Below are positions 6,621-57,156 of a stretch of DNA of 64,000 nucleotides, one piece after another. A program made the translations under genes and the position numbers. Position 1 is the stretch's first letter. Every line of letters starts with the position of its first letter. Below the pieces are notes generated by a model. The model was given only the letters and a program-made list of their open reading frames with translations, did no database searches and was not told the origin of the DNA. Source of the DNA: Candidatus Woesearchaeota archaeon (lineage in GTDB: Archaea > Nanobdellota > Nanobdellia > Woesearchaeales > JBDRGA01); the NCBI GenBank assembly GCA_043818175.1, contig JBDRGA010000016.1, forward strand, positions 14,003-78,002. The letters run 5' to 3'.

Positions 6621-7013
6621 TTATGCCTCTCTGGCGAGCTTCGCCTTCCTCTTCTTGTCGTCAAGGTTCAATTCTGTAATCATCATGTTGCTTGGATGGA
6701 TTCCCACTTGCACCTTTGAGCCGTCTCTCTTTGTCTGCTGTGCCTTGCCGAGGAACACTCGGGTCTCCTTTATGTCTACTCGCTCGACCTTCGCTTCTAT
6801 TCCTTTGAATGCACCACGAAGCACTTTCACCTTGTCACCTGTGCGAACCCTTATGTTTCGCATCTTATGCTTCTCACGGAGGAGTTTGCTAAGGTGGACT
6901 GACAGAAGATGCCCTTTAGTGTGGAGTGGCGCGTTGGCTGTGTACTTGCGCTGCTTCCTAGGTTGACTGCTTGCCTTCCATGCCGTGCTGAATTTTGCTT
7001 TCATCTCATACAA
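6621..7013 (-). CDS. rpl24: 50S ribosomal protein uL24
   Basis: 130 aa; KOW motif (RTGDKVKVLRGAFKGIEAKV). Confidence 0.88.
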   Translation of the reverse strand: MYEMKAKFSTAWKASSQPRKQRKYTANAPLHTKGHLLSVHLSKLLREKHKMRNIRVRTGDKVKVLRGAFKGIEAKVERVDIKETRVFLGKAQQTKRDGSKVQVGIHPSNMMITELNLDDKKRKAKLAREA

Positions 7014-7407
7014 TCGTACTCGCGACCTTTGCTATTGCAGGCCAGCGTGAGCACGCCTCCTTTGCTATTGGACCCTTGAAAATGGTCCCTTTGGGATTGC
7101 CCTTGTCATCCTTTAGGACAACAACAGCATTATCTTCGAATTTGATTCTGGTACCGTCTGCGCGCCTATACTCCTTCCTCTGGCGTACGATGATTGCGTG
7201 CACAACCTGCTTACGCATGTCCGGTCTGCCTTTCTTTACTGCCACCATCACCAGGTCGCCTACTCCTCCTGCGGGAATTCTTCCCTTTCTCGTATTATGA
7301 CCAACCACGCTAAATACCTTGACGACTTTCGCGCCAGAGTTATCACAGACATCAACCTGCGCCCCAACAGGTATTCCTCTTGTTACGCTCGCGCTTATGG
7401 CCTTCAT
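7006..7407 (-). CDS. rpl14: 50S ribosomal protein uL14
   Basis: 133 aa; L14 signature (VCDNSGAKVVKV..., GDLVMVAVKKGRPDMRK). Confidence 0.9.
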   Translation of the reverse strand: MKAISASVTRGIPVGAQVDVCDNSGAKVVKVFSVVGHNTRKGRIPAGGVGDLVMVAVKKGRPDMRKQVVHAIIVRQRKEYRRADGTRIKFEDNAVVVLKDDKGNPKGTIFKGPIAKEACSRWPAIAKVASTIV

Positions 7408-19059: not shown

Positions 19060-21246
19060 TCAGTCAGAATACTCTGTATCAAGCACTTCGCGAATCCTTG
19101 CTGCTTTCTTTTCACCTATTAAGTCAACTTTCTGCAATTTTTCTTCAGATGCGGAAAGTAACTTCTTGGGCGTTTTGAACTTCTTGAGTAATGGTTTTGC
19201 AAGGGCAGGTCCAATACCAGGGAGTGAAGATATAAGATATTCCTGCTGTTCCTTCAGCGTTAATGGCTTTGCAGAATGCATTGTGAACTCCTTCTTCTTG
19301 TCTTCCTGAAATCGCTTTGCAATAACCCCAAATAATGCGGCAGTCTCTGCAGGACCAGAAGTTCTTAGCACAGGAATCTGAAAACTCAAAGCTAAAGTTG
19401 CAAGCATGCCCTGAATTGCAGAAGGATGCATATTCCTCTGCGCATACATATCTTCATCACCCTCAATGAGTATCAGTGGTTTCTGGTAAGCACGCAATCC
19501 TTTTGCCTGTGTAAGAAGCCGTCCATCAACAATACTATCAACAAAATCACGCACAGTCTTGAACTCAACACAAACATCCTCAGATAAAAGGTAATCTCCT
19601 ACTTCGAGTTGGGAGAGGTTAATAGTAAAGCCCTGTTCCGACAGGAGTTTTACTGTCTTTGATGCTTTCTCCCTGTGATCAACATAAATAGTCAATTTGT
19701 TGTCTGAGTAGTCCATAAGACTCCTTGTGCTCTTTTGGGGTGAGAAAGTTCTTTTCATCTCTTTCAATTCGCGATACATTCTAATCTCTTTATGGTGTGC
19801 GCTCCACCTGTGCGCTTCATCTCTTGTTCCCTTTGTTACTAGAACAACAACACGCCCTTTCTCCTGTCTCCCCGTTCTTCCTCTGCGTTGCACTGTTCTT
19901 ATTGCTGAAGGTACAGGTTCGTAGAATATCACCATATCCACTGCTGGAATGTCCAACCCTTCTTCTGCTACAGAAGTGGCCACTAAAACATTAAAACCTC
20001 CTTCCCTGAACGATTGCAATGTTGCCTGTTGTTTTTTCTGCGACATACCCGTATCTGCTTTCATCTGTTGGCCTACAAATATCTTGCAAGGTATCTTCTC
20101 TGTTTCGAGAGCGCGCACAAGCACAGATGCCTGGTCTCTGTATTGATTAAACAATATTATCTTAACCTCTTTATTGATGACATATTCATTCCTGATAAGC
20201 CGCACGGCTTCGCCGAGTTTCGGATGCTCAACTCCTTCCTCGAGAAGACGCGACGCCAAAAGGTGTGCCGCCTTAACATCTAGATGCTGCATCAGGTTCT
20301 TCACTGCTTTCACATTGGTGCTTCTAGACTGTTCGGAAAGTTTGTCAAGGTAGGCAACAACCGAAGCCACACCTTGTGTTTCCGCTAATTCTATGGCGTG
20401 CTGAACTTTCGTTGCCTGCGCAATAAGAGATAATGCTTTCATGGCAGTAAAATCTCTGTCGCGAGATACTGACGCACCAAGCGCGCGTTGAAGATGAAGC
20501 AAGTCCACTTTGTTCATCTGTGAACTATTATTTGGGGCGTGGCCCGTGGCAGCAAGCTGAGTCATTGCGTCGTCGTATGCTTTTTTCAAGTAATCTCTCA
20601 GCGCCAAAATCTTTGGGTGTGGTGTTAAGGTAACCCAATCCACGTTGATTTCCTGCACGTACTGTTTTACGTCGGGGTCTTCTTCTGTTCTTACTTCTAT
20701 ATCTTCAATATGAAGATTCTGCATTACTTCTTGAATGTCTTCTTTCCTGCTTCCCGGGCTTGCAGTTAGTGCGAGAAGTCTGGCGTGTGATGCTGACGCA
20801 AAATACCTCTTTGCAATAAAGACATAACCATAATCACCCACTGCTCTGTGCGCTTCATCCACTACGAGAAGCGAGACTGAGTCGAGTTTTATCCGTTTCG
20901 TGAGTATGTCGTTTTCAAGTCCTTGTGGTGTTGATATTACAACGCGCGCATCCTTCCACAATTCCTCTCGTGTTTCTGGTTTTACGTGGCCTGTGAACAA
21001 AACTATACGTTCCTCTGGAATGTCAAGATGATTTCGAAAACTGGCGGCGTGCTGCTCACATAAAGGTCTTGTGGGAGCCAACACCAACACTTTCGATCCA
21101 GAATAATGCTCTAGGCGGTGTGCGGCAAGCATCACGGCCACCATCGTTTTTCCCAGCCCCGTGGGCAAAACAACTAAAGTGTCGTGCTTTACTGCAGTGG
21201 CTAGAATTGTCTGCTGATATAGCCTTGGCTCGAACCCTTTAATCAT
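19060..21246 (-). CDS. hef: Hef: helicase-associated endonuclease for fork-structured DNA (SF2 helicase + ERCC4/XPF nuclease + HhH2)
   Basis: LPTGLGKT Walker A, VVDEAH DEAH box, a helicase C domain, an ERCC4 nuclease motif (IYVDHREKAS...) and C-terminal helix-hairpin-helix repeats. At ~728 aa from the internal Met (MIKGFEPRLYQQ), the size matches Pyrococcus Hef. Confidence 0.8.
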   Translation of the reverse strand: MIKGFEPRLYQQTILATAVKHDTLVVLPTGLGKTMVAVMLAAHRLEHYSGSKVLVLAPTRPLCEQHAASFRNHLDIPEERIVLFTGHVKPETREELWKDARVVISTPQGLENDILTKRIKLDSVSLLVVDEAHRAVGDYGYVFIAKRYFASASHARLLALTASPGSRKEDIQEVMQNLHIEDIEVRTEEDPDVKQYVQEINVDWVTLTPHPKILALRDYLKKAYDDAMTQLAATGHAPNNSSQMNKVDLLHLQRALGASVSRDRDFTAMKALSLIAQATKVQHAIELAETQGVASVVAYLDKLSEQSRSTNVKAVKNLMQHLDVKAAHLLASRLLEEGVEHPKLGEAVRLIRNEYVINKEVKIILFNQYRDQASVLVRALETEKIPCKIFVGQQMKADTGMSQKKQQATLQSFREGGFNVLVATSVAEEGLDIPAVDMVIFYEPVPSAIRTVQRRGRTGRQEKGRVVVLVTKGTRDEAHRWSAHHKEIRMYRELKEMKRTFSPQKSTRSLMDYSDNKLTIYVDHREKASKTVKLLSEQGFTINLSQLEVGDYLLSEDVCVEFKTVRDFVDSIVDGRLLTQAKGLRAYQKPLILIEGDEDMYAQRNMHPSAIQGMLATLALSFQIPVLRTSGPAETAALFGVIAKRFQEDKKKEFTMHSAKPLTLKEQQEYLISSLPGIGPALAKPLLKKFKTPKKLLSASEEKLQKVDLIGEKKAARIREVLDTEYSD

Positions 21247-21307
21247 AATGAAACAGAAAAGGAAGAATCGTTTAATTGCTTTTCCTCCGAAAAAAAGAGG
21301 AAAAAAT

Positions 21308-21562
21308 TTATCGCTTCTTGACAGTGCGTTTCCTGCCACGCGCCATCTTTGCGCGGCTGATGTCGCCCTGACTGTCTACGAAGTACAGGTATCCTGACTC
21401 CTTCTTGACGCCTGCCTTGGCTACCTTCTCGCGTTTGGCTTTTCCTTTCTTCTTGCCACCACCGCGGGCCATCTGTGCGCGGGAGATGTCTCCCTGCTTG
21501 TCGACGAAGTACAGGTAACCGTACTGTTTCTTAACTCCTACTTTTGCAACCTTTTGTGCCAT
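21308..21562 (-). CDS. Small basic protein built from two tandem ~36-aa repeats (VAKxGVKKxxGYLYFVDxQGDISRAxMARG)
   Basis: Directly visible internal duplication; Lys/Arg-rich with no Cys; possibly nucleic-acid binding. Function unknown. Confidence 0.45.
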   Translation of the reverse strand: MAQKVAKVGVKKQYGYLYFVDKQGDISRAQMARGGGKKKGKAKREKVAKAGVKKESGYLYFVDSQGDISRAKMARGRKRTVKKR

Positions 21563-23400: not shown

Positions 23401-24213
23401 TTACGAAGTTGCCTTCATATTGTCCCAAGTGGTCTCAAACATGGACTTCAGGGCCTGGCCAAAGGACGGTGTCGTTGCCCAGATTCCAGCATCATATGAT
23501 GGATGTACGTTTTCATCGTGCAAAAACATGAACGCCACTTGTTTGTCGTCAACAATGCAGAATCTCGCCTTCTGATCTTTTTGAGTTCGAACTTCGGCCA
23601 CGGCCTTCAAAGACTCGATTGCTCTCTTTGTCTTTGCTGTTAGGGGGGCAGATATTCTTATTGATACGCCCCTGTCCTTTGCTTTCTTGAAGGACAGCAT
23701 CAACTGCTCGCTCTTCTTTACTATACCTTCTTCGCTCGTTACAAGAATTATTGAATGCTTTGCTTCGTTGATCATATACTCCAAATGGTCTGTGAGGCTG
23801 TCCCTTCCTTTTATGGATCCTGCCATATCTGAAGGATTAATCATTTCAATGCCTTGAGAATGAAGAATGGAAAGTTCAGTAAGGACTTCAGAACCTTTTA
23901 TTTCATCCATCATTTGGATATGTGTTTCTGAATCCTCTTTTATGCGCTTCTTGACACGTTCAAGAACCTCGTTTGGTTGAATGGCAAGGTACTTTATGGG
24001 TTTTCCAACCTTCATCATGATGAAGCCCTTCTTTTCGAGGGACTCAAGAACATCGTAGCTTCTGCTTCTGGGAACATTTGCTATGTCGCTTAGCTCGCCA
24101 GCAGTGCTTACGCCACGGCTGAGCAAAGCTGCCCAGATCTTTGCTTCGTAGCTGTTAAGCCCGAAATCCTTCAGTTTCTTGAGGAATCTTTCATTCACGA
24201 CCATTATCGTCAC
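23401..24213 (-). CDS. TrmB family transcriptional regulator
   Basis: N-terminal wHTH (LGLNSYEAKIWAALLSRGVSTAGELSDIANVPRSRSYDVLESLEKKGF), a coiled-coil and a C-terminal effector domain. Confidence 0.8.
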   Translation of the reverse strand: MTIMVVNERFLKKLKDFGLNSYEAKIWAALLSRGVSTAGELSDIANVPRSRSYDVLESLEKKGFIMMKVGKPIKYLAIQPNEVLERVKKRIKEDSETHIQMMDEIKGSEVLTELSILHSQGIEMINPSDMAGSIKGRDSLTDHLEYMINEAKHSIILVTSEEGIVKKSEQLMLSFKKAKDRGVSIRISAPLTAKTKRAIESLKAVAEVRTQKDQKARFCIVDDKQVAFMFLHDENVHPSYDAGIWATTPSFGQALKSMFETTWDNMKATS

Positions 24214-24565
24214 CTGTTAATGGGAATGTTTGTTGTATATATAAGCGTTTCGACATTTGACTATTGAGTAGTGATTACAAATTGTGGATGTTATGTGACC
24301 CTCCTGTTGCACTTGGAAACGCGAAAATCAAAATAAACGAACTTTTTCGAATGATGTTTATATATAATATATAATATATTTCAATATTGAAAAATAATAA
24401 TAAGAGTTCTCATTTCTGATATTAAACAAGAAAACAGTCGCAAGCCATATAAGAAAGTTCCATAGGAAATGAAGGGGTGTCTCTTCATCACTCGAAACCA
24501 ACAATTCCCTTACTTATATTCTCGTAGCGCAATCCTTAAATAGGGGTGTGTTTCGAGTGCAACGT
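24214..24565. other. Putative replication origin (oriC): ORB element, AT-rich unwinding region and inverted repeats upstream of orc1/cdc6
   Basis: A full ORB-like box GTTCCATAGGAAATGAAGGGGTG lies at ~24457-24479. A ~70-bp >85% AT stretch at 24355-24420 contains the palindrome TTTCAATATTGAAA. Inverted repeats GTTGCACTTGGAAAC (24306-24320) and GTTTCGAGTGCAAC (24550-24563) flank it. The layout matches the Pyrococcus cdc6-polD origin. Confidence 0.55.
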
Positions 24566-25771
24566 ATGGGGAATTTGAAGAATTATTTCGAGGCATACCT
24601 GAACACAACAAGCATTTTTAGTGATAAACATGTGCTTCAGAGCAACTACTTTCCAACCGAAGTAAATCATCGGAACGAACAGATAACTCAAGTGGCTAAA
24701 ATACTCGCTCCAGCACTTCGCGGCGAGAAACCGAGCAACCTATTTATTTATGGAAAAACAGGAACCGGAAAGACACTTTGCGTGAAACACACAACAAGTC
24801 AGATGTCCAAGGTGGCATCTGAGAAAGGAATTGCATTAAAAGTGTGTTATTTGAACTGCAAACTCAAGAAGATTGCAGATACAGAATACAGGCTTATTGC
24901 ACAGCTCGCGAGAGAATTTGGCAAGGCGATTCCACCAACAGGACTACCAACGGACGAAGTTTACAACACTTTCTTTTCTGCTCTAGATGCCGAGAAACAA
25001 ATAGTATTGTTGGTTCTGGACGAAATTGACCAATTGGTTAAGAAAGCAGGGGATGAAATAATATACAATCTCACAAGAATAAATTCAGACCTTAAGAACT
25101 CACAAGTGAGCATTATAGGAATAAGTAATGATTTAATGTTCAGTAACAATCTAGACCCACGCGTCAAGTCGAGTTTGAGTGAAGAGGAGCTTCTCTTTCC
25201 ACCATACAACGCGCTTCAGATCCAGGAAATACTAAAAGAAAGAGCAGACATCGCATTCAAAGAAGGAGCACTCCAGGAAGGAGTAATACAAAAATGTGCA
25301 GCATATGCTGCAAGGGAACACGGTGATGCGAGAAGAGCACTAGAACTGTTAAGAGTTGCAGGAGAACTGGCAGAAAGAAGCCAACAGGAACAAGTAACAA
25401 CAGAACAGATAGACAGCGCAGAGGATAAGATAGAGCACGACAGAGTGTATGAATTGGTAAAAACACAACCAAAACAACACCAACTCGTACTTTTCAGCAT
25501 TTTAAACATAAAACCAGAGAACTCACAAACCCAAATTTATACAGGAGAAGTTTACGATTATTACAAAGGGCTCTGCGACCAGGTTAGCCAAAGACCATTG
25601 ACGCAAAGAAGAGTCAGTGATGTAATACAGGAAATGGACATGTTGGGCATAATAAATGCAAACGTGATAAGCAAAGGCCGTTTTGGCCGGACAAGAGAAA
25701 TAAGTCTTGCGATACATCATTCCCTGAAGACAAAAATAATGACCACGTTGAAAGATGAAGTATTCTCCTGA
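24566..25771 (+). CDS. cdc6: Orc1/Cdc6 replication initiator
   Basis: AAA+ Walker A GKTGTGKT, Walker B LVLDEID, sensor motifs and a C-terminal winged helix. The track ORF starts at a GTG at 24548; I used the ATG at 24566. Confidence 0.88.
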   Translation: MGNLKNYFEAYLNTTSIFSDKHVLQSNYFPTEVNHRNEQITQVAKILAPALRGEKPSNLFIYGKTGTGKTLCVKHTTSQMSKVASEKGIALKVCYLNCKLKKIADTEYRLIAQLAREFGKAIPPTGLPTDEVYNTFFSALDAEKQIVLLVLDEIDQLVKKAGDEIIYNLTRINSDLKNSQVSIIGISNDLMFSNNLDPRVKSSLSEEELLFPPYNALQIQEILKERADIAFKEGALQEGVIQKCAAYAAREHGDARRALELLRVAGELAERSQQEQVTTEQIDSAEDKIEHDRVYELVKTQPKQHQLVLFSILNIKPENSQTQIYTGEVYDYYKGLCDQVSQRPLTQRRVSDVIQEMDMLGIINANVISKGRFGRTREISLAIHHSLKTKIMTTLKDEVFS

Positions 25772-27204
25772 TGGACCCCGAACTCATCAAACGGCTTCTT
25801 GAGAAGAACATTCTGGTGTCGCCAGACACCACAGATGAAGAAGCCAGAAGGCTACTTGGCGATGCACCAGAAACCAAATTAGTTATCAATCCAAACGAAG
25901 CACCGGAATTGAATATAGTTTATGATTTCAACGAACCGCCAAAGAAACGCACAGTTCAGGACTTTGTAGGGTTATTTAATGCGAGATTCCGCGAGCTTGA
26001 AGGAATACTGAGGAATCGTGTTGAACTACAGAACCTTACCAGCATTTCGAGAGCCAAGAAAATGCAGGCCAGAGAAAGAACAGCAATTATTGGAATGGTT
26101 CTGGACAAGCGCGAAACAAAAAATCACAACATAATACTTGTCATGGAAGACCAGACCGGAAGCATAACAACAATATTCACTCAGAAAAACAAAGAAACGT
26201 TTGAAATGGTCAAAGACATAATGCTGGATGAAGTAATAGGCATAACAGGCCAGACCGCAGGAGATGCAATCTTTGCTGATAAAATAATTTTGCCAGATGT
26301 GCCAGTAACAAAAGAACTCAGAAAAGCACAAGAGGATGAATATTTGGTCGTGCTTGGAGACCCACACATAGGAAGCAAACGATTTCTAAGACACAGCTTC
26401 GGAAAGTTTCTCCAATGGATAAATGCAGAGGCGGGCACACCAGAACAAAGAGATAATGCGAAAAAAGTAAAACACATAATTGTTACTGGTGATTTGGTTG
26501 AGGGAGTCGGAATTTATCCAAACCAGGAAAGGGACTTGGAAATTCCAGACATACGTGCACAGTACGAAGCCCTAACGAGTATAATCAGTCAGATTCCACA
26601 ACGAATACGGATAACGATGTTCACAGGCAACCACGATTCTGGCAGGATGGCAGAACCCCAACCCGCCCTGGGAGACTATTATTCAGAAACGTTGCACAAA
26701 TTACCAAACGTGACGTTCGTAAGCAATCCAAGCGTAGTCAACATAGGCAGAACAGACAAGTTTGAAGGATTTGATTTGCTTCTTTACCATGGATATAGTT
26801 TAGGATACTACGGGACAAATATACCAAGCGTCAGAGCGGCAGGAGGCATGACGCGCGCGGACCTAATCATGAAATACTTTCTTCAGAGAAGACACCTTGC
26901 GCCATCTCACAAGAGCACACTGTATGTTCCCACACCTCAGAAAGACCCGCTAGTAATATCCACAATTCCCGACTTCTTCATAACCGGGCACACCCACTGT
27001 GTTACTGTAACCAATTACAGAAATATTACTTTAATTAATGGCAGTTGCTGGGCGGGAATGAGTGAAGACCAGGAAAAGAGAGGAATAACACCAGCTCCAG
27101 CAAGAATAATTCTGGTGAACTTGAAGACAAGAGCAGTAAAGATAATGAATTTCATGGACAAGACAGACATAGAAGAAGGAAGGAGCCTGGAGCTGGTTGC
27201 ATGA
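25771..27204 (+). CDS. polB: DNA polymerase D small subunit (DP1; Mre11-like phosphoesterase)
   Basis: 477 aa; OB domain plus calcineurin-like phosphoesterase motifs (VVLGDPHIG, GDLVEGVG, GNHD, GHTH). Confidence 0.85.
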   Translation: MDPELIKRLLEKNILVSPDTTDEEARRLLGDAPETKLVINPNEAPELNIVYDFNEPPKKRTVQDFVGLFNARFRELEGILRNRVELQNLTSISRAKKMQARERTAIIGMVLDKRETKNHNIILVMEDQTGSITTIFTQKNKETFEMVKDIMLDEVIGITGQTAGDAIFADKIILPDVPVTKELRKAQEDEYLVVLGDPHIGSKRFLRHSFGKFLQWINAEAGTPEQRDNAKKVKHIIVTGDLVEGVGIYPNQERDLEIPDIRAQYEALTSIISQIPQRIRITMFTGNHDSGRMAEPQPALGDYYSETLHKLPNVTFVSNPSVVNIGRTDKFEGFDLLLYHGYSLGYYGTNIPSVRAAGGMTRADLIMKYFLQRRHLAPSHKSTLYVPTPQKDPLVISTIPDFFITGHTHCVTVTNYRNITLINGSCWAGMSEDQEKRGITPAPARIILVNLKTRAVKIMNFMDKTDIEEGRSLELVA

Positions 27205-30200
27205 ACGCAAGCAAACAGATGCAGCAGTACTTCAAGGAACTAGAGAAACAGTGCTTCAAAGAGCTTGCTGTTGCCGAGTCCTGTAGGAAAAAGTCATACG
27301 ACCCGACAAAAGAAGTGGAGACAGCTCTCGCGAAGAACATGGCAGAGCGAGTAATAGGAATAATTGCAGTTGTAGCACCCCAGATACGAGGAAAAGGAGC
27401 AGAAAAAAGAATACAGGAACTCGAGAAAGAGTATGGTGTTCTCGACTGGAGAGTTGCGCTGAAAATATCTGAAGAGATTGCAAGGCAGAAATTCTGCACG
27501 TTCAAAGATGAACGGGAAGCAATGGAAGTGGGTATTCGTGCAGGATTCACATATGTTACAGTTGGTGTTGTCAGCAGTCCCTTAGAAGGATTCACAAGCC
27601 TGGAACTGAAAGACAGAATGGATGGAACGGGGAAGTATTTCTGTCTGAATTATTCTGGCCCAATTAGGAATGCAGGTGGAACAGCGGCGGCGGTAAGTGT
27701 CATAATAGGAGATTATGTTCGAGTAAAGTTCGGCTATAAAGAATACGATCCAACAGAAAAAGAAGTAAAGCGTTGTTTTGCAGAAATGATGGATTATCAT
27801 GAATGGATTGCGAATTTGCAATATGTTCCTTCGGAAGCAGAAACGGAATTCTTGTTGCAGAGAATACCTGTAGAAGTAAGTGGCGACCCAAGCGAGAAGT
27901 ACGAAGTAAGCAACATAAATTTGAAAGACCTTCCAAGAGTGCAACATAATAGATTAAGGTCGGGCTACTGTCTGATTCATTCAAGCTGCATACCTTTGAA
28001 AGCACCAAAGCTGTGGAAGCAATTGTCTGTTTGGGGAGAAGAATTCTCGATGGGACACTGGAAGTTCCTTGAAGAATTTCTCGTGCTGCAGAAGAAGATG
28101 AAAGCACAGGGAAAGAAAGCAGCAAGTGACAAGCTTGCTCCGGATTATACATTCATTCATGATCTTGTTGCTGGCAGGCCGGTATTTGGACATCCATCAA
28201 GACAAGGAGGGTTCAGGTTAAGATATGGTAGGAGCAGAACATCAGGATTCAGCGGTCAAAGTTTGCATCCAGCAACAATGGTAGTGATGAACGAATACAT
28301 TGCTACTGCAACGCAACTCAAAGTCGAAAGACCCGGAAAAGCAGCAGCGTTTACGGTTTGTGATACAATAGAAGGTCCCGTAGTAAAGTTAGAGTCGGGA
28401 GACGTGGTGTGTTTGAACAACGAAAGGGAAGCACGAAAAATACGACCACAGATAAAAGAGATAATATACGCAGGAGACATCCTGATAAACTGGGGTGATT
28501 TCCTCAACAGAGCTCACGTCTTGGCGCCGGCAGGGTATTGTGAGGAATACTGGATACAGGAAGTTGAGGAGAGAATAGTGCACTTGTTCGGTACTCTGGA
28601 CTTCGAAAAGGCAGGATACTTACTGGATGAAGAAGAAGGCAAACTTCGAAGTATGTTCTCAAATCCTTTAGGGACGAATGTAAATGCGAGCACTTCAATT
28701 AAAATGAGCACGCGGCTGGGCTGTCCATTACATCCAGCACATACATTCAAATGGCGCGCATTGTCTGCGAAGCAACTCAAGGAACTTGTCGTGTGGCTAA
28801 AGAAAGGAAAAACAATAGAGGAAAGTGAGTATAAACTCATTCTTCCATTGGATTCAGCGAAGAGATATCTCGAGCTAATTGCATGTCCCCACAAACACAT
28901 CCAGAATGAACATTCAGTCATACAGCACGAAGCATTGCTGGCGCTGAAGACACAACTGGACTTCGAAAACATAAAAGAAGAAGACCTGTCTGAAGAGGGG
29001 AACGCGCTTAATGTTATAATATCACTCGCGGCCTATCCAATCAGAGATAAATTGGGCATTTCAATAGGTGCGAGGATGGGTCGTCCCGAAAAAGCAAAGA
29101 TGAGGAAGCTCACTGGAAGCCCGCATGCACTTTTCCCAATAGGCGAACAAGGGGGAAAACTGAGAAGCTTCCAGGAAGCACTGGTGGCTGGCAATGTTGA
29201 AGCAGATTTTGGAGTTTATTGGTGTGGCAAGTGTAAGAAAGAACAAGTATTGCCAATATGTATAACTTGTGAAAAGCCAACAGAGAAGAAGAAATTCTGC
29301 ACGACCTGTGGTGTAGTTGATGAATGTCCTCACGAACCAAAACCATTCAAGCGCAGCACAATACCAATACGAGAATACTTCAATTATGCACTAAAAAAAG
29401 GAGGCACAAGCATATATCCAGACCTGATTAAAGGGGTGAGGGGCACAGTTGGCACTGAACACATACCCGAGCACCCGTTGAAGGGAATATTGCGTGCAAA
29501 ACACAGCATCTGTGTAAACAAAGACGGCACAACCCGGTATGACATTAGTGAGGTCACAATGACCCACTTCAAACCAAAAGAAGTTGGCACATCTGTGGAA
29601 AAATTAAGGGAATTGGGATATACTAGTGACGTTTATGGTAAACCATTGGACCACGAAGACCAGGTTCTCGAATTAAAAGTGCAGGATGTCGCGCTTCCCA
29701 GCTGTCCAGATAGCCCCGACCTTCCGTGTGATGAAATACTATATAGAACTGCGAACTTCATGGACGAGCTGCTCGTGAGTCTTTACGGTCAAAAACCATT
29801 CTACAATCTCCAGAACAGAGCAGACTTGGTGGGTCATCTAGTGATTGGGTTGGCTCCGCATACTTCTGCAGGCATCCTTGGGAGAATCGTTGGCTTCACA
29901 AAAACACAAGGATTCTTCGCCCACCCTCTCTATCATGCAGCAATGCGCAGAGACTGCGATGGTGATGAGAGTTGTGTTGTGTTGCTTCTTGATTGTCTTG
30001 TCAACTTCTCCAAATCTTTCTTACCCAGCAGCAGAGGAAGCACGATGGACGCACCAATAGTACTGACATACATCTTAACACCATCAGAAGTGGACGATAT
30101 GGCATTTGATGTTGATAGGGTTTGGAAGTACCCTCTGAAACTGTACAGGGCTGCAGAACAATACAAAATGCCCTGGGACGTCCCACTTGATAAAATAGGG

Positions 30201-30704
30201 AACCACCTCGGAAAGCCAGGCGAGTACGAAGGCATGGGTTTTACGCACGACACAGACAACATCAATGCAGGTGTTCTTTGCAGCGCGTACAAGCTCTTGC
30301 CAAGCATGCAGGAGAAACTCATGAGTCAAATGGACCTAGCCGAGAAACTCAGAGCAACAACAGCTTCAGAAGTGGCAGCTTTGGTGATTGAGAAACACTT
30401 CATTAGAGATATTAAGGGAAATCTTCGTAAGTTTTCGCAGCAGGAATTCAGGTGTGTTAACTGTAATGCTAAATACAGACGACCACCCTTGAAGGGAAAT
30501 TGCACTACCTGTAATGGAAAGATAATATTCACAATAGCAGAAGGAAGTGTCATTAAGTACTTGGGCCCTTCAATCAGTCTAGCAAAGAAATATGGAGTTA
30601 GCACTTATCTTCAACAGACATTGGAACTTACACAGCAGCGTATTGACGAGCTTTTTGGCAAGGACAAGGAGAAGCAGTTAGGACTTGGTGCGTGGTTTGG
30701 GTAA
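27201..30704 (+). CDS. polC: DNA polymerase D large subunit (DP2), intein-free
   Basis: 1167 aa collinear with archaeal DP2. Zn-finger cysteine clusters (CGKCKKE..CITC, CTTCG, CVNCNAKY..CTTCNG). Its start overlaps the DP1 stop by 4 nt. Confidence 0.85.
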   Translation: MNASKQMQQYFKELEKQCFKELAVAESCRKKSYDPTKEVETALAKNMAERVIGIIAVVAPQIRGKGAEKRIQELEKEYGVLDWRVALKISEEIARQKFCTFKDEREAMEVGIRAGFTYVTVGVVSSPLEGFTSLELKDRMDGTGKYFCLNYSGPIRNAGGTAAAVSVIIGDYVRVKFGYKEYDPTEKEVKRCFAEMMDYHEWIANLQYVPSEAETEFLLQRIPVEVSGDPSEKYEVSNINLKDLPRVQHNRLRSGYCLIHSSCIPLKAPKLWKQLSVWGEEFSMGHWKFLEEFLVLQKKMKAQGKKAASDKLAPDYTFIHDLVAGRPVFGHPSRQGGFRLRYGRSRTSGFSGQSLHPATMVVMNEYIATATQLKVERPGKAAAFTVCDTIEGPVVKLESGDVVCLNNEREARKIRPQIKEIIYAGDILINWGDFLNRAHVLAPAGYCEEYWIQEVEERIVHLFGTLDFEKAGYLLDEEEGKLRSMFSNPLGTNVNASTSIKMSTRLGCPLHPAHTFKWRALSAKQLKELVVWLKKGKTIEESEYKLILPLDSAKRYLELIACPHKHIQNEHSVIQHEALLALKTQLDFENIKEEDLSEEGNALNVIISLAAYPIRDKLGISIGARMGRPEKAKMRKLTGSPHALFPIGEQGGKLRSFQEALVAGNVEADFGVYWCGKCKKEQVLPICITCEKPTEKKKFCTTCGVVDECPHEPKPFKRSTIPIREYFNYALKKGGTSIYPDLIKGVRGTVGTEHIPEHPLKGILRAKHSICVNKDGTTRYDISEVTMTHFKPKEVGTSVEKLRELGYTSDVYGKPLDHEDQVLELKVQDVALPSCPDSPDLPCDEILYRTANFMDELLVSLYGQKPFYNLQNRADLVGHLVIGLAPHTSAGILGRIVGFTKTQGFFAHPLYHAAMRRDCDGDESCVVLLLDCLVNFSKSFLPSSRGSTMDAPIVLTYILTPSEVDDMAFDVDRVWKYPLKLYRAAEQYKMPWDVPLDKIGNHLGKPGEYEGMGFTHDTDNINAGVLCSAYKLLPSMQEKLMSQMDLAEKLRATTASEVAALVIEKHFIRDIKGNLRKFSQQEFRCVNCNAKYRRPPLKGNCTTCNGKIIFTIAEGSVIKYLGPSISLAKKYGVSTYLQQTLELTQQRIDELFGKDKEKQLGLGAWFG

Positions 30705-36659: not shown

Positions 36660-39600
36660 TCACATCTTACTAATCTTTCCAGGCTTGGGATGATAGATAT
36701 CTCCCTTCCTGGTTAGCTTTTCTAAGATTTCTTCTGCCTTGTCCTGGTTGATGCTCTGGTTCAGGGCTTCCTGGATAACGTCTTCCGTCTCAATTACCTT
36801 GCCGTACGTTTCAGTCAGTTGATTAATAATCTCCTTGATTTGGTGAATCTGATTACGTTCAGAAGCAGGAATACCTCCAGTGAAACGGTCAATGTCAATC
36901 TTTCCCGTTTGAGGGTCCATTCCAATCTGTTGCAAGCAGTAATGAACCAGTTCAATCGCTCTTCGGGAGTCCTTCCTTCTAATTACAGTGTCCAATCTTG
37001 TTTTAGCTGAAGCTTCACTCAAACGAACAAGCGCTTCCAACTGACGAGCAGAAATCGGTACTGCTTTAACACCACCCTCGCCTCCACCAGAAGCACGCAT
37101 TTCAACGAAGTATCTTTGGATCTCTTCCTTGGCTTCATCGCTTAGAATGGGCTTGCAGCGTATCCTAGCATAACTCACGTACTTCTTGTAGAATTCAGTC
37201 TTCAGTTCAACCGTGTCAAGAGCGTGCTCATCCTGATGCAGGTCTAGGATGAAACTAGCCATCTGCTCGTCCTTGAACTTATCGGGCATGTCTTTCACTG
37301 CAAAGATTAGGTCAAAGCGATTAATCAACGTAGAAGGCAGTTCAATCTGTTTTCCAACCATCTCGTAGGGGTCAAAACGCCCGAATTTTGGGTTTGCAGC
37401 TGCGAGAACAGTTGTTTCAGCCCTCAATGTTGCCTGAATGTTCGCTTTAGAAATAGAAATAGTCTGCTGTTCCAAAGCTTCGTGCAAAGCACTAGTATCT
37501 TCTTTAGTCATCTTATCTAGTTCGTCAATACAACAGATGCCTTTGTTCGTTAAAGGCAAGGCTCCAGCTTCCAAAGCCCAACCACGAAGGAAATCATCTT
37601 TCACAACCGAAGCAGTATTGTGAACCAAAACACCGTCAACGATGAAATTATGCGAATCCTCCACAGTTAAGTCATACACAAAGTCAAACTTTGACTTCTT
37701 CAATTCAACAGATTTCACCTTTTCCCAGAACACATCGCTGTTTGCCAGCGCGAGAAGCTCGACGTCTTCTATTTGATTCTCAAGTACAATTCTCTGCAAC
37801 GCTTCTTTGCTCAGATTGGGATGCCATCCTGCCTTTTTGAGTGGAATCTTTCTAGATTGGAGAATCTCCTTCAACCGCTCAGAAACGCCAGGAACAACAT
37901 CAATGTTTGTATTGTGCTTGGTTTTTGAAATTAATGCCAGTTTTGCCTTCTTTTTGGGGTGGCGTAATGGAATCTCTTTTGCAAATGTCTCGATGTCCTT
38001 ACCTCTTATTGATAGAACCCATTTGTCCAGTTTTCCCTGAATCTTCGAATTAACACTCGGGCTTCTGGGTCTTAATCGTGCATGCACGCCATATCTTAGG
38101 AATGCAAGCTGAAGCTGCCGTGCGAGTTTCTCTGAACAAGTCGTGAACTCGATGCACGAGCTATTATGTCCTTTACTGACGTAAACAGATCCATCTGCGT
38201 CATATAGTCCTGCGATGTATGAAGCAAGAAGTTTATTTGAAAGGTGAAGGAGTGTATTGGACATAAATATTGAAGACGATTTGGGGCTTAGTGAAATTCC
38301 GAGAGACATAAGAATCTCTCCAACAATCTTTGATGCAACTCTGCTTGCCTGTGGTCTGGTATCTGATTCTGGTTGAGTATCACATGAAAGTTGGAATTCC
38401 TTCTCAAACAAGTTTCTGAATGTGTCAAGAATGGTTGGTTCGCCGTTTGACAACCTAATGGCTATTGAATCTCCTGGAGTTTTTCTCATGTCGCCGTCGC
38501 CTGCGATGAGCCCTGCAACATGGAGAAATTCTTTTGAGAGATTGATGGGCACTTTGTGCTTCTTCCCGTTCCAGAGACTCACTGTCTGTACTCTGTGTTT
38601 CCAAGGAATCCTCGCAGCTTCAGCAAGGAGTCTCAGGTCATTAAGCTTGATGGTCCCTCTGGTTTCTGGATTCACCCAATGATGATATAGTTGGTTCTCG
38701 TTTATGCAAAGCGCGTTGGCTGCCTTTCTCACAGAACCGTATATTTCTTTCAGAATCTCAACAGATTCCTTGACCAAATCCTCAACGCCGCGCACAACAG
38801 GATTGCTCGCAATAAGGTCAACTGGGCTTTGCTCATTGACTGTGCCTCCAATTAGTTTTCTGGGTGTTCCGACAAAAGTGCCAGTTGTTATCTCAGAACT
38901 CTTAGTCCAAGACGGCTTACCACCATTTAGTACGAAGAGTTTCGTATTTGCAGTAAGTTGAACCCGTTTTCCGCTATCAAGCGTTACCTCATACATGAAT
39001 TCAGGAGCCTCAAGACGCCATATTGCAGAGGGATGCTTAGAATGTAACTTCATGTCTTTAGATAAAGACTGTATTTTGACATCTGTCACGTTATCTCTTT
39101 TCCACACACCTGATCTGAACTCAAGAGGAAATTCCATTCTTGATTCAACAACCTCTTGGATTGTTTCACATCCTCCTGGATTTGTAAGAACCATGCTTTC
39201 AGGGCTCACGCACAATCCAGCACCGGACGCACCTTTACCAGAAACAAACCTTGATTTAGGCGCAACTTTAGCAATTCTCCTCAACAATTGTGATTTTCCC
39301 GAACCAGGGTCTCCAATGAGCAGAATATGTATGTCTCCTCTCCTAACTACACCATCGGTCATGCTCTTTCTCACACCACCAAACAATTGCAATAACAGCG
39401 CTTCCTTGATTTTATCGTGACCGTAAATGCTTGGAGCTAAACTACCAATCAATGATTCGTAAACATCAGGCCTTTTGGCGAAATCCTCTATTCCAGCCAG
39501 TTCTTCAGGAGAAATAGCCATCTCAGAGAAATCTTCAAGCACTGGTTCTACAAAATTTGCTTCGCACATCAAATCAAAGCGAGTGCTCTGTCCGCCTTGT

Positions 39601-40295
39601 TGCAAGGTAATTGGAACCTCTTTTACGATTCCAACAACCTTTATCTTTGCACCAGGATTGGTTCTTTTCTCTGTTATTGGAGAGACAAGATCGTTCTTCA
39701 GGAAGATGTTGAACCTTTTAGGTTGCTCTCCGCCTTCTAATTCGTCAGGAGACTCTTCTAAAGTAATCTTCTGCGCATCGACCAGTTCCTTACCAATCAA
39801 ACGGAACTTACCTTTTCTACCACAACCACATCTTGTTGGCTCCTTGAATTTAGTATCGAGCTGTAGCACCGCAATAATATTGCCACAGGAAGGGCATTCA
39901 AAACGAGCAGCCGTTACTTGAGGCCGGACATCTGTCTTCTGCTTTACGATACCCTGCATCTCGAGAAATTTGCCAATATGTCTGGAACGAATATCTCTGA
40001 TCATAATCTGCTGACTTTCAGGAAGGTCCTTGAATCGTATCTGGAAGTTCTTTACTTCTCCAGCAAGATCAAACCGGTCAACGGCAGCAGAAGCAGCAGC
40101 CAGTACTTCTTCAGGGTCTTCGAGCAGCAGGTCAGCTAGTTCAGGATTGAACTTCGCGAGCTCTCCAAGCTCCACAACGAGAAACTTATGCCCCTTCGAG
40201 GCCTGTTTTACCAGGTCTGCGTAATGATGTTCCTCGAGGAACTTGTGGAAAAGCTCAATCTGCTTGGCTGCATCGATTGTTTGAGCTTCCTGCAT
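36660..40295 (-). CDS. mcm: MCM replicative helicase interrupted by one large intein
   Basis: N-terminal Zn motif CPSCGN...CGCG, Walker A GDPGSGKSQ, Walker B CCIDELDKM, sensor and arginine-finger regions, and a C-terminal wH. It is 1211 aa, of which ~679 aa is extein. Confidence 0.88.
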   Translation of the reverse strand: MQEAQTIDAAKQIELFHKFLEEHHYADLVKQASKGHKFLVVELGELAKFNPELADLLLEDPEEVLAAASAAVDRFDLAGEVKNFQIRFKDLPESQQIMIRDIRSRHIGKFLEMQGIVKQKTDVRPQVTAARFECPSCGNIIAVLQLDTKFKEPTRCGCGRKGKFRLIGKELVDAQKITLEESPDELEGGEQPKRFNIFLKNDLVSPITEKRTNPGAKIKVVGIVKEVPITLQQGGQSTRFDLMCEANFVEPVLEDFSEMAISPEELAGIEDFAKRPDVYESLIGSLAPSIYGHDKIKEALLLQLFGGVRKSMTDGVVRRGDIHILLIGDPGSGKSQLLRRIAKVAPKSRFVSGKGASGAGLCVSPESMVLTNPGGCETIQEVVESRMEFPLEFRSGVWKRDNVTDVKIQSLSKDMKLHSKHPSAIWRLEAPEFMYEVTLDSGKRVQLTANTKLFVLNGGKPSWTKSSEITTGTFVGTPRKLIGGTVNEQSPVDLIASNPVVRGVEDLVKESVEILKEIYGSVRKAANALCINENQLYHHWVNPETRGTIKLNDLRLLAEAARIPWKHRVQTVSLWNGKKHKVPINLSKEFLHVAGLIAGDGDMRKTPGDSIAIRLSNGEPTILDTFRNLFEKEFQLSCDTQPESDTRPQASRVASKIVGEILMSLGISLSPKSSSIFMSNTLLHLSNKLLASYIAGLYDADGSVYVSKGHNSSCIEFTTCSEKLARQLQLAFLRYGVHARLRPRSPSVNSKIQGKLDKWVLSIRGKDIETFAKEIPLRHPKKKAKLALISKTKHNTNIDVVPGVSERLKEILQSRKIPLKKAGWHPNLSKEALQRIVLENQIEDVELLALANSDVFWEKVKSVELKKSKFDFVYDLTVEDSHNFIVDGVLVHNTASVVKDDFLRGWALEAGALPLTNKGICCIDELDKMTKEDTSALHEALEQQTISISKANIQATLRAETTVLAAANPKFGRFDPYEMVGKQIELPSTLINRFDLIFAVKDMPDKFKDEQMASFILDLHQDEHALDTVELKTEFYKKYVSYARIRCKPILSDEAKEEIQRYFVEMRASGGGEGGVKAVPISARQLEALVRLSEASAKTRLDTVIRRKDSRRAIELVHYCLQQIGMDPQTGKIDIDRFTGGIPASERNQIHQIKEIINQLTETYGKVIETEDVIQEALNQSINQDKAEEILEKLTRKGDIYHPKPGKISKM
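37617..39212 (-). mobile_element. MCM intein (~532 aa) with a LAGLIDADG homing-endonuclease domain
   Basis: Inserted after SGKGASGAGL. It begins CVSPESMVL and ends GVLVHN, with T as the +1 extein residue. Two LAGLIDADG blocks are present (VAGLIAGDGDM and LASYIAGLYDADGSV). Coordinates are derived by residue counting, +/- a few nt. Confidence 0.8.
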
Positions 40296-40921
40296 TAGCG
40301 TACATTCTTGACGTTCTCGATGAGCATGGCAAGCGCTTTATGCACCTGTTCTTCGCTCTTAGTACCTGTGCAAACAACCTTTCCGTTGCTGAACAGGAGG
40401 AACGTGGCTTTTGCTTCCCTTAGCTTGTATACAAGTCCTGGGAACTGTTCTGGCTCGTATTCTGTGTTTTCGAGCTTCATAGCCAATGTGTTAAGGTTAA
40501 GGTCCATGCCTATGCTTCCTGAAGCAACGATGTTCTGGATTATTATCTTAGGTGTTATTGTTATCTTTATACCTATTTTCTTCAAAGATTCGATAATCTT
40601 CTGGATTGACTCCTCAACTTTCTCCATGCTTCTCGCGCCAGTGCAGACCACTTTGCCAGAGCTGAATATCAAAGCTGAAGTTTTGGGTTCACGAATCCTA
40701 ATTACCAAACCAGGGAACTGCTCAGGATTGTATTCTGTGTTGGACAAAGTTGCAGCCATCTTTTCCAGAGGAATATCGTGCTCAAGGCTAGTGCTAACTA
40801 CCATATTAACAACTTCAACTTGAACTTCGCGTTTAATTCCTTTATCGGTCTTAATTGCTTTGTCGGTTGATGTTTTCTGTACGGCCTTTTTTGCTGCTTT
40901 GTGTGCGGCTTTCTTTGGCAT
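40295..40921 (-). CDS. tbp: TATA-box binding protein with a Lys-rich N-terminal extension
   Basis: Two TBP repeats (NTEYNPEQFPGLVIRIREPKTSALIFSSGKVVCTGARS and NTEYEPEQFPGLVYKLREAKATFLLFSNGKVVCTGTKS). The track ORF runs to 41029 through a TTG; I used the Met at 40921 (MPKKAAHKAAKK...). Confidence 0.85.
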   Translation of the reverse strand: MPKKAAHKAAKKAVQKTSTDKAIKTDKGIKREVQVEVVNMVVSTSLEHDIPLEKMAATLSNTEYNPEQFPGLVIRIREPKTSALIFSSGKVVCTGARSMEKVEESIQKIIESLKKIGIKITITPKIIIQNIVASGSIGMDLNLNTLAMKLENTEYEPEQFPGLVYKLREAKATFLLFSNGKVVCTGTKSEEQVHKALAMLIENVKNVR

Positions 40922-40928
40922 AATACAA

Positions 40929-41150
40929 ACCCCCTGTTTCGGGTTCTTTCTTAAACCCTTTATAAGGGGAATTGCTTTCTTATTTATAAAGGCTTTCGTT
41001 CCCTGACCAGTATGTTGCTTATACACCAATTCCAGAATCTAAGACCCCTTGATTTCCACTGGAACTTTGGCTGTAGAGGCTCTGTAAGGCCAGTATTTGG
41101 TGTTCTTTATGTTTTGGTGACGAAATAGACCCCCTTGTTTCCGATGGAAC
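40929..41150 (-). promoter_or_regulatory. Cluster of ORB-like elements (two full boxes plus a mini-ORB) and a TATA element upstream of tbp-mcm
   Basis: On the minus strand the full boxes are GTTCCATCGGAAACAAGGGGGTC (~41128-41150) and GTTCCAGTGGAAATCAAGGGGTC (~41044-41065). A mini-ORB CCCGAAACAGGGGGT (~40929-40943) lies 8 bp before the TBP ATG, and CCCCTTATAAAGGG sits at ~40956-40969. Confidence 0.5.
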
Positions 41151-41164
41151 TCATTTATAAACAA

Positions 41165-42029: not shown

Positions 42030-42043
42030 TTTCAATATTGAAA
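42030..42043. promoter_or_regulatory. Perfect 14-bp palindrome TTTCAATATTGAAA (copy 2 of 3)
   Basis: An exact self-complementary 14-mer in the NYN / small-ORF divergent intergenic region. The AT-rich flanks are conserved with the other copies. Confidence 0.5.
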
Positions 42044-46811: not shown

Positions 46812-48284
46812 TCACAACGGTTCAACAGATTGAGGGAGGGTCTTCACGAAATTCAGGCGCTCTTCTCTGTTTATCTTGTCGCTCTTGAACATATAACGGC
46901 TCCTGCAATACCTGCAGCACGGTTCATTGTTCATTTTGAAGAATTTTGGGGGTATGTCCTCTTCCACAACACGAGAAATGCAGTTCTGGTTCTGGCACAG
47001 AAGATAGACAAACTTCTTCGTGATTGTTCCTTTGTTGATGTAATTTATTGTTGTCTCGGGCGATATCAAGGCCGCCCGTTTCAAGTCACGATCAGTCAAC
47101 GATGGAAGGTCCGTCTTCAATATGTTTGTGCTCTTTTGGGGAATGTGTGCAAATATGGCCAGCTTCCCTCGCTCCTTGAGCTTCAGTTGCATTCCGATTT
47201 CTAGTTCAAGTCCCTTTGCTATGTGGTCAATTACAACACCATCTTTTATGTCATTTATTATCCCTGGTTCTCTGTTCTTTGAACCATGTCTGAGCAGAAT
47301 GTTGTTTCCATTTTCCAACAAAGGATTCAGGATGCCTGAGAATTGAACAATTTCGGCGTCTTTGAACATACTGTAAAGAAGCGCTTTCCTCAGAAATATG
47401 CCATTCTCCGCCTGCTTGAAGAATCCCTGTGCATCGCTGAAGTAAACAGCATGGTCAATTTCTGCCAGTTCGCTGTTGACAGGCAAAGGATGCAAAACCT
47501 TTCCCTTGAATTCACGAACCCGTTCAAGTGTGATCCTGTACTTGTCCATTAAATCATGGACTTGAGAGGCAGAACTACCCATTCTCTCCAATTGAGGTCG
47601 GGTCATGTAGAAAACATCAACGTTCTTCATAACATCAACAACTTCAGCATGTCGAACGACTTTTACGCCTTTCTTAGCAAGGTGCTCTGTAAGTGAAGTG
47701 GGCATTCCAAGAAAATCCTCAGCACACCAATGAATCTCAACGTTATCATAATTGGCTAAAGCTAATGTCTGGGAATGTATAGTTCTTCCATGCGCTAGAT
47801 CACCTCCATAACCCACTTTTATTCCATCGAGCTTTTCTCTCAAAGTGCTCATCGTGAAAAGGTCAAGCAATGCCTGCGTGGGGTGCTCGTTCTTTCCATC
47901 GCCCCCATTAATAACAGGAATCTCAGAAACGTCAGCAGCCCACTGAACACTTCCATCTTTAGGATGTCGCATCACGATAGCGTCAGCATGATTGGCCTCA
48001 AACATCTTTATCGTATCTCTTATGCTTTCCTTCTTCGTTACGGACGTGCCCTCAATACCGCTGAAACCACCTGCTCTTCCACCAAGCTCTACAATTGCAG
48101 TTATGAAACTCTGCCTTGTCCTTGTGCTTGGCTCGTAGAAAAGGTTTGCAAGCCGGAAAGTGCGAGGAAGCTGTAGTGAATACCTCTTGCCAGATTCCTC
48201 AATTTGCTTCATCTTCCCGGCCAACGCGAGAAGCTTGTTGATTTCGTCCTTCGAGAAGTCCTGAATGGAAATTACATCCCCCAT
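46812..48284 (-). CDS. pyrBI: Aspartate carbamoyltransferase with fused catalytic (PyrB) and regulatory (PyrI) chains
   Basis: N-terminal ~310 aa carry STRTR, HPTQ and HPLP ATCase motifs. The C-terminal ~150 aa match PyrI (GVVIDHI..., zinc site CQNQNC...CCRYC). Confidence 0.8.
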   Translation of the reverse strand: MGDVISIQDFSKDEINKLLALAGKMKQIEESGKRYSLQLPRTFRLANLFYEPSTRTRQSFITAIVELGGRAGGFSGIEGTSVTKKESIRDTIKMFEANHADAIVMRHPKDGSVQWAADVSEIPVINGGDGKNEHPTQALLDLFTMSTLREKLDGIKVGYGGDLAHGRTIHSQTLALANYDNVEIHWCAEDFLGMPTSLTEHLAKKGVKVVRHAEVVDVMKNVDVFYMTRPQLERMGSSASQVHDLMDKYRITLERVREFKGKVLHPLPVNSELAEIDHAVYFSDAQGFFKQAENGIFLRKALLYSMFKDAEIVQFSGILNPLLENGNNILLRHGSKNREPGIINDIKDGVVIDHIAKGLELEIGMQLKLKERGKLAIFAHIPQKSTNILKTDLPSLTDRDLKRAALISPETTINYINKGTITKKFVYLLCQNQNCISRVVEEDIPPKFFKMNNEPCCRYCRSRYMFKSDKINREERLNFVKTLPQSVEPL

Positions 48285-57142: not shown

Positions 57143-57156
57143 TTTCAATATTGAAA
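57143..57156. promoter_or_regulatory. Perfect 14-bp palindrome TTTCAATATTGAAA (copy 3 of 3)
   Basis: Lies ~90 bp upstream of the giant surface-protein gene. It is preceded by a 100-bp stretch of degenerate GGTT(T/G)AT / GCTAAC direct repeats. Confidence 0.5.

Follow-up and report, generated by a model that had tools for sequence, protein, structure and literature searches.

A predicted Orc1-1-dependent replication origin upstream of the orc1–polD operon of a Candidatus Woesearchaeota archaeon

The DNA analysed here is a stretch of 64,000 nucleotides (hereafter, the window) from a Candidatus Woesearchaeota archaeon (contig JBDRGA010000016.1 of assembly GCA_043818175.1). Within it, a gene for a TrmB-family regulator and the orc1/cdc6 gene for a replication initiator are transcribed away from each other, and the spacer between them is the subject of this analysis as a candidate chromosomal replication origin. 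Directly downstream of orc1 lie the genes for the small (DP1) and large (DP2) subunits of the DNA polymerase PolD. The trmB start was placed at the ATG at 24204, as judged against relatives, and the distance between the two ATGs is 361 bp (24205-24565), slightly more than the 350 bp given in an earlier description made from the letters alone (the sequence-only reading). The genes are otherwise as described there, except that the orc1 ATG is at 24566 and not at 24567, from which the frame is full of stop codons. Stop and start codons overlap at both junctions, in TGATG between orc1 and DP1 and in ATGA between DP1 and DP2. Such junctions are the usual signature of translational coupling, so that orc1, DP1 and DP2, which share one direction and are identified by their Pfam domains, fit the single operon that had been proposed. 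Pfam gave no match for the gene that follows DP2. Feature coordinates are collected in Table 1.

The Orc1 protein encoded in the window was aligned end to end with Orc1-1 from Sulfolobus solfataricus (PDB code: 2QBY_A, E=2e-105) and ORC1 from Aeropyrum pernix (PDB code: 2V1U, E=1e-98). These are its best relatives of solved structure, and both were crystallised on DNA of the origin recognition box (ORB). The winged-helix DNA-binding segment TQRRVSD…GRFGRTREI is conserved in the window protein. Judged by its sequence, the initiator is an Orc1-1/ORC1 orthologue, and this similarity, together with the conserved winged-helix segment, is consistent with its recognising a box of this type.

The composition of the spacer sets it apart from its surroundings, with a GC content of 33% over 24214-24565 (352 nt) versus 44.6% for the whole window. 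A stretch of about 70 bp with more than 85% AT had been reported in it, and the 70 nt from 24357 are indeed 88.6% AT, while the 50 nt from 24354 reach 94%. The maximum-AT windows of 50, 70 and 100 nt in the entire 64 kb all fall in 24324-24430. A nearest-neighbour scan of duplex stability identified the same AT stretch as the least stable duplex of the 64 kb (z=5.4-5.5, with runners-up at 3.3-3.8), and it is the candidate duplex unwinding element of the spacer. An explanation of the spacer as a structured RNA is unsupported, as no match came from Rfam, searched with the spacer and with the full 64 kb, or from a tRNA scan.

To the right of the AT stretch lies a strong ORB. A 28-nt ORB matrix was built from 30 ORB-like sites taken from relatives only, with the window excluded. 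This site scores 34.6 bits, whereas the maxima of 100 windows simulated with a first-order Markov model had a mean of 12.3 and a top value of 22.7 bits, and it contains an exact GTTCCATAGGAAATGAAGGGGTG at 24457-24479. The near-consensus ORB of the sequence-only reading is thereby borne out. The G-string of the site is directed away from the unwinding element, which, judging by the Orc1–ORB structures, is probably also the orientation of G-strings in characterised origins. The pattern TCCANNNGAAAYNNRGGGG, with one mismatch allowed, has three matches in the window versus 0.11 expected. The first 17 bases of the box (GTTCCATAGGAAATGAA) are identical at 15 positions to the reverse complement of Pyrococcus furiosus ORB1 (GTTCCAGTGGAAATGAA; oligonucleotide from PMC1904270), and across the relatives scanned the forward ORB of the window is among the strongest.

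The remaining ORB-like elements near the AT stretch are weaker. Only 15 positions in the whole window score at least 5 bits with the 28-nt matrix (0.23 per kb), and two weak inverted matches lie to the left of the AT stretch, versus about 0.16 expected per 700 bp as estimated from this density. The nearer one, the putative left arm, reads TTTCCA-AGT-GCAAC-AGG-AGGGT and has the correct ORB spacing. Matches to the mini-ORB core above 6 bits number four in the spacer, or five if the palindromic ORB is scored on each strand, versus 0.46 expected, although only one of the four is strong. The sequence-only reading had described inverted repeats bracketing the AT stretch. Their arms were located at 24306-24320 and 24550-24563, but the repeat is imperfect (one mismatch and a 1-nt indel) and marginal against shuffles, and besides the AT stretch the arms enclose the ORB and the promoter of orc1. 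Among inverted repeats weighted by composition, the best in the spacer is a perfect 10-nt pairing of 24489-24498 with 24550-24559. This was reached by 4% of shuffles (p ~0.04), and inverted repeats were dropped as a separate feature. The repeats are better read as diverged ORB and mini-ORB elements, because they have ORB-like cores and because relatives carry ORBs at the equivalent positions.

Table 1. Features of the trmB–orc1 spacer, the adjacent genes and the tbp–mcm locus (window coordinates).
Feature	Coordinates	Strand	Basis and remarks
trmB-family regulator gene	23401-24204	minus	Pfam TrmB (7e-22) and Regulator_TrmB (9e-9); transcribed away from orc1
Weak inverted ORB-like element	24162-24189	minus	7.4 bits, 28-nt matrix; within the first trmB codons
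Putative trmB TATA box	24236-24244	minus	TTATATATA; about 36 nt upstream of the trmB ATG; read from sequence
Degenerate inverted ORB, left arm of predicted origin	24294-24321	minus	5.2 bits; contains GTTGCACTTGGAAAC (24306-24320)
Candidate AT-rich duplex unwinding element	24322-24430	none	AT content and duplex stability scan
Perfect 14-bp palindrome	24379-24392	none	TTTCAATATTGAAA; inside the unwinding element, exact midpoint of the trmB–orc1 spacer
Strong ORB, right arm of predicted origin	24455-24482	plus	Core GTTCCATAGGAAAT; G-string GGGGTG directed away from the unwinding element
Weak mini-ORB-like element	24485-24498	plus	TCATCACTCGAAAC; core matrix, 6.3 bits
Putative orc1 TATA box	24536-24542	plus	TTAAATA; centred 27 nt before the ATG; read from sequence
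Mini-ORB-like element between orc1 TATA box and ATG	24550-24563	minus	Contains GTTTCGAGTGCAAC; 14-nt core matrix, 10.3 bits
orc1/cdc6 initiator gene	24566-25771	plus	Pfam Cdc6_C, Cdc6_lid, AAA
PolD small subunit gene (DP1)	25771-27204	plus	Pfam DNA_pol_E_B and Metallophos
PolD large subunit gene (DP2)	27201-30704	plus	Pfam PolC_DP2_N, central and catalytic domains
mcm	36660-40295	minus	No gap to tbp
tbp	40295-40921	minus	No gap to mcm
Strong ORB, proximal of direct pair	41040-41067	minus	29.4 bits, 28-nt matrix scan
Strong ORB, distal of direct pair	41125-41152	minus	22.3 bits, 28-nt matrix scan

Relatives of Orc1 were retrieved from a one-genome-per-species scan (17 loci, 55-68% identity) and from a metagenome scan (18 further loci; individual loci are given below by L numbers), and their upstream regions were read, aligned and scanned with the ORB matrix. 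The 17 loci are labelled as metagenome-assembled genomes (MAGs) of Woesearchaeota, Nanoarchaeota, Pacearchaeota or Nanohaloarchaeota, with the exception of L012, which bears the label of a Bacillota MAG. A TBP 100% identical to that of the window occurs in an NCBI record labelled 'Candidatus Woesearchaeota archaeon'. The host had been called low-GC and DPANN-like; these labels and the identical TBP bear out the second part, whereas 44.6% GC is low in a relative sense only.

A common layout is found upstream of orc1 in about 30 loci, nearly all from MAGs of Woesearchaeota or other DPANN with GC contents of 27-65%. It consists of an inverted ORB, an AT-rich stretch, one or two forward ORBs, a TATA box and orc1. 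The proximal forward ORB of the relatives lies between about -70 and -115 relative to the start of orc1, and the inverted ORBs at the left-arm position score 13-36 bits. More locally, the position of the putative orc1 TATA box of the window, centred 27 nt before the ATG, implies a leaderless mRNA. The conserved block CTTTAAATA, the TATA box of the closest clade, stands at the same distance from the ATG in L002, L003 and L005. The layout of this clade also includes a third ORB, weak and inverted, between TATA box and ATG; such an element is present in L002, L003, L005, L032, L013, L009 and L018. The divergent trmB neighbour is also present in L002 and L005. The window appears to fit the template of its relatives, its peculiarity being diverged elements at both of the 'inverted' positions. 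Judged from these alignments, positional conservation is the strongest support for reading the spacer as an origin.

Archaeal origins in general consist of AT-rich DNA with ORBs on its flanks, located beside cdc6 (PMC4010727), and in Thermococcales ORB clusters are the most robust predictor of origins (PMC4640148). The sequence-only reading had likened the locus to the mapped oriC of Pyrococcus, and the gene order does match, since in Pyrococcus the origin lies directly upstream of cdc6/orc1 with dp1 in the same 5-kb region (PMC1904270, PMC4010727). The locus further resembles the oriC of P. abyssi and P. furiosus in having a single cdc6/orc1 next to the origin, a PolD gene nearby and AT-rich sequence flanked by ORB or ORB-like elements, and its ORB core is nearly identical to that of P. 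furiosus ORB1. In contrast, the Pyrococcus spacer is about 800 bp long with two 34-bp ORBs and many 13-bp mini-ORBs, whereas here the length is 361 bp and a single strong element is accompanied by three or four weak ones; with four distinct core matches above 6 bits, the spacer falls short of the more than four mini-ORBs expected of a Thermococcales cluster. The second ORB cluster of Pyrococcus inside dp1 has no counterpart either, as no core match above 9 bits was found in 25771-27204. The G-string follows the core directly here (GAAGGGG) and comes after ACTCT in Pyrococcus, and no radB homologue was identified by Pfam in the window operon.

Likenesses are also found in oriC1 of Sulfolobus and ori1 of A. 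pernix. These share with the window a 22-23-bp ORB in which a dyad core is followed by GGGG, and they have the closest solved initiators; in them inverted ORBs flank an AT-rich unwinding element next to orc1-1 (PMC12141716), an arrangement to which the window appears to conform. The difference lies in the left arm, as the flanking ORBs of S. islandicus are both strong and individually essential, while the left ORB is degenerate in the window and strong in its relatives.

The asymmetry of the strands gives a mixed picture. Raw GC and AT skews have a local cumulative minimum near 24 kb, but this tracks the gene strand. Because raw skews follow gene orientation, skew was measured at four-fold degenerate third positions in plus-strand coordinates. 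An inversion of cumulative GC skew at the spacer had been suggested as a check; at four-fold sites GC skew shows none, whereas AT skew does invert near 22 kb. To the left of the site the AT skew amounts to -0.13 for minus-strand and -0.17 for plus-strand genes, and to the right to +0.05 and +0.16, respectively. The best change point lies at 21.96 kb (likelihood-ratio statistic of 89, versus 70 at the origin boundary), and the observed value was not attained in any of 2000 permutations of gene order. This switch is moderate support for an origin. Gene orientation agrees with an origin here as well, with 28 of the 31 genes left of the spacer, including a ribosomal-protein cluster, on the minus strand. 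Skew-based detection of origins can fail in archaea and does fail in Thermococcales, where ORB clusters remain reliable (PMC4640148), and the GC-skew test is a weak one in this domain.

Taken as a whole, the initiator gene, the ORB, the unwinding element, the gene order and the conservation of the layout support the earlier proposal that this spacer places the replication origin. We consider it likely, with a probability of roughly three in four, that the trmB–orc1 spacer is a chromosomal replication origin of the Orc1-1-dependent oriC1 type. As such it is a further example of a well-known type, which standard ORB-based prediction would find. No description of an ORB in DPANN was found in the literature searched, which is weak evidence of novelty, nor was an experimentally mapped DPANN origin found there.

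Several points weigh against this assignment. GC skew at four-fold sites is positive throughout the 64 kb. The AT-skew change point is offset by 2.4 kb from the site, the left half of the window is dominated by the ribosomal-protein cluster, and once that cluster is excluded, minus-strand genes no longer differ significantly in AT skew between left and right (p=0.32). A stretch of 64 kb is too short for a global skew extremum to be placed. The flanking inverted ORBs are unequal, with a strong right arm and a left arm of only 5.2 and 7.4 bits in this genome, where relatives clearly carry both; in oriC1 of S. islandicus (PMC12141716) and of Haloarcula hispanica (PMC3936714), neither of the two inverted ORBs can be dispensed with. 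The window holds two other strong ORBs at about 41.1 kb. Finally, an origin adjacent to orc1 is unused in some archaea, for example T. kodakarensis (PMC5663688), and some predicted origins are dormant (PMC4595724).

The motifs could conceivably be chance matches in an AT-rich promoter spacer, of a kind common in archaeal genomes, and the inverted repeats of the sequence-only reading, taken alone, would be compatible with this at p ~0.04. The ORB score, however, beats all 100 simulated windows by 12 bits, the ORB pattern is far in excess of expectation (3 versus 0.11), and dozens of divergent genomes keep the architecture in the same position, so that chance is effectively refuted. A more substantial alternative is that the spacer is only regulatory, with Orc1 controlling orc1–polD and perhaps trmB, and that replication starts elsewhere or proceeds without an origin, for example by recombination. 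The overlap of ORB-like elements with the putative orc1 promoter and the degenerate left arm would suit an operator; the strong ORBs upstream of tbp–mcm, which have no AT-rich element, imply that ORBs are used outside origins in this lineage; and origin-independent growth is documented in Thermococcus (PMC5663688, PMC11005403). On this account, though, it would be left unexplained that the 64-kb extreme of AT richness and instability sits exactly between oppositely oriented ORB elements, that the full layout is conserved in relatives including an unwinding element needless for a simple operator, and that the four-fold AT skew switches nearby. We therefore regard a purely regulatory spacer as unlikely.

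The ORB pair upstream of tbp–mcm has also to be considered as the real origin or a second one. Its two boxes are strong, a third core match lies at 41275, the pair is conserved in four lineages, and the gene of the replicative helicase is adjacent. The two ORBs are 85 bp apart, 119 and 204 bp upstream of tbp, and a direct pair with a spacing of 84-85 bp, or about eight helical turns, is found upstream of tbp in three of the seven TBP loci fetched from relatives (L036, L041 and L042), while the other four (L037-L040) have none. The tbp–mcm adjacency was seen in L041 and L042, and the L036 sequence ends just after tbp. In the alignment upstream of tbp, the ORBs and two TATA-like boxes stand out as islands of identity in otherwise diverged sequence. 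However, both ORBs point in the same direction and have no inverted partner, which characterised origins need (PMC12141716, PMC3936714). Neither the DNA between them nor that on either side contains an AT-rich element, and the closest stretch of low duplex stability falls within the tbp coding sequence; nor is there a neighbouring initiator gene. In more distant relatives tbp–mcm is retained but the ORBs are absent, and the orc1-adjacent layout is far more widespread. An origin at this pair is thus very improbable. Since inverted partner, AT-rich element and adjacent initiator gene are all lacking, the pair is probably an Orc1 operator or titration site and not a second origin.

The nearest precedents for such a pair are non-origin ORB clusters, namely those in Pyrococcus dp1 (PMC1904270) and in oriC2D of H. 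hispanica. The latter comprises 11 ORBs in 722 bp directly downstream of cdc6 and is not itself an origin (PMC3936714); as a site of initiator titration, like datA of E. coli, it offers a possible analogy, in that initiator boxes stand outside the origin. By comparison with oriC2D, the pair resembles a transcriptional operator more than a sink for titration, because there are only two ORBs, at a fixed spacing of 85 bp, 16.5 kb away from the origin and upstream of a promoter.

The region upstream of tbp (40935-41000, minus strand) also holds TATA-like boxes, two or three in number and near-perfect (CATTTATAAATAA, TTTATAAAGG), which are conserved across Woesearchaeota (L036-L042). Their conservation hints that tbp may be autoregulated by its own product. 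The MCM of the window (1211 aa) carries an intein with a LAGLIDADG homing-endonuclease domain, as does that of L040, whereas the MCM of other relatives is intein-free at about 672 aa.

For the predicted origin in the trmB–orc1 spacer, a mechanism can be drawn by analogy with Sulfolobus, Aeropyrum and Pyrococcus, from which we infer Orc1 binding, MCM loading, firing and autoregulation alike. In Sulfolobus, Orc1-1 monomers bind ORBs with a defined polarity, ATP-bound Orc1-1 suffices to recruit MCM, and initiation takes place at the edge of the unwinding element (PMC12141716). By this analogy, ATP-bound Orc1 made from the adjacent gene would bind the spacer as monomers of fixed polarity, strongly at the right-arm ORB and weakly or cooperatively at the inverted elements on the left. 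The dyad cores of the ORBs would then face the AT-rich element, with the G-strings outward. Bound Orc1 would deform the DNA and recruit MCM onto the AT-rich element of about 110 bp, where the duplex would open. Replication would proceed bidirectionally, the leftward fork being co-directional with transcription of the ribosomal-protein cluster. The orc1 promoter would lie inside the origin, and Orc1 probably represses its own operon, including PolD, because a mini-ORB-like element sits between the orc1 TATA box and the start codon.

The unwinding element itself contains a perfect 14-bp palindrome, TTTCAATATTGAAA. Three exact copies of it are present in the window (24379-24392, 42030-42043 and 57143-57156) versus 0.11 expected, and all are intergenic. 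In the alignment of the closest relatives, the invariant columns of the AT-rich stretch spell TTTCnATATTGAAA. The dyad is found in the origin AT-rich stretch of eight of 21 non-redundant related loci, where shuffles give an expectation of 0.11, and across all fetched loci it is almost confined to this stretch. This pattern suggests that the palindrome is bound by a dimeric protein with a role at the origin as well. TrmB is unsupported as the binder, since some related origins, L004 and L009 among them, have the dyad but no trmB next to them. The copy at 57143-57156 precedes an open reading frame of 1497 aa (57247-61740, plus strand) without a Pfam match.

The palindrome recalls the ucm motif of Sulfolobus, which is bound by UBP, is essential for oriC1 and occurs at hundreds of other sites (PMC12141716). 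Both are short, conserved, non-ORB motifs that lie in the unwinding element between inverted ORBs and occur elsewhere in the genome. The sequences are unrelated, since comparison of wild-type with control oligonucleotides in PMC12141716 gives ATTATACAAAC for ucm, and TTTCAATATTGAAA is a perfect palindrome. It is conceivable, though we hold the combination to be somewhat doubtful, that Orc1 directly controls tbp–mcm and that the palindrome, which recurs at other promoters, serves a second origin factor, similar to UBP in function. Should this be so, the helicase and a general transcription factor would be under direct control of Orc1.

Further ORB-related sequences were observed in relatives. 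In L013, the spacer that follows DP1 contains three ORBs in tandem (6944-7040), reminiscent of the second cluster of ORBs that Thermococcales have near dp1. The adjacent 679-aa gene of L013, on the opposite strand, was considered as MCM and rejected, BLASTP having matched only the intein of the window MCM; its motifs look like those of an intein-containing DP2 fragment. In L011 (~2045), L012 (~2013), L014 (~2216) and L016 (~1952), a conserved ORB directly adjoins a (GTCT)n microsatellite some 2 kb upstream of orc1, and in L011, L012 and L014 repeated ATGTGTCGAA motifs come next. A related TTTCGACAT is present in the window at 24248-24256, beside the trmB promoter.

Among the other genes of the window, one for a Hef-type helicase–ERCC4 nuclease (19060-21339, minus strand) lies 3 kb from the predicted origin; this gene, orc1, polD and mcm all fall within 20 kb and make up a neighbourhood of replication and repair genes. 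A single 490-aa open reading frame (46812-48284, minus strand), in which the catalytic domains of aspartate carbamoyltransferase (OTCace_N, OTCace) are joined to the allosteric domain of the PyrI regulatory chain, appears to be a PyrB–PyrI fusion.

DPANN archaea are uncultured, and their replication biology is read from genomes only. A fixed origin in such a lineage would provide a reference for estimating growth rates from metagenomic read depth, and would aid in orienting and closing MAGs and in studying gene order relative to replication. Recognition of Sulfolobus/Aeropyrum-type ORBs by Orc1-1 appears, from the sequences compared here, to be essentially unchanged in Woesearchaeota. The ORBs upstream of tbp–mcm and the palindrome of the unwinding element suggest that lineage-specific layers of control may have been added, and these are the parts most worth attention.

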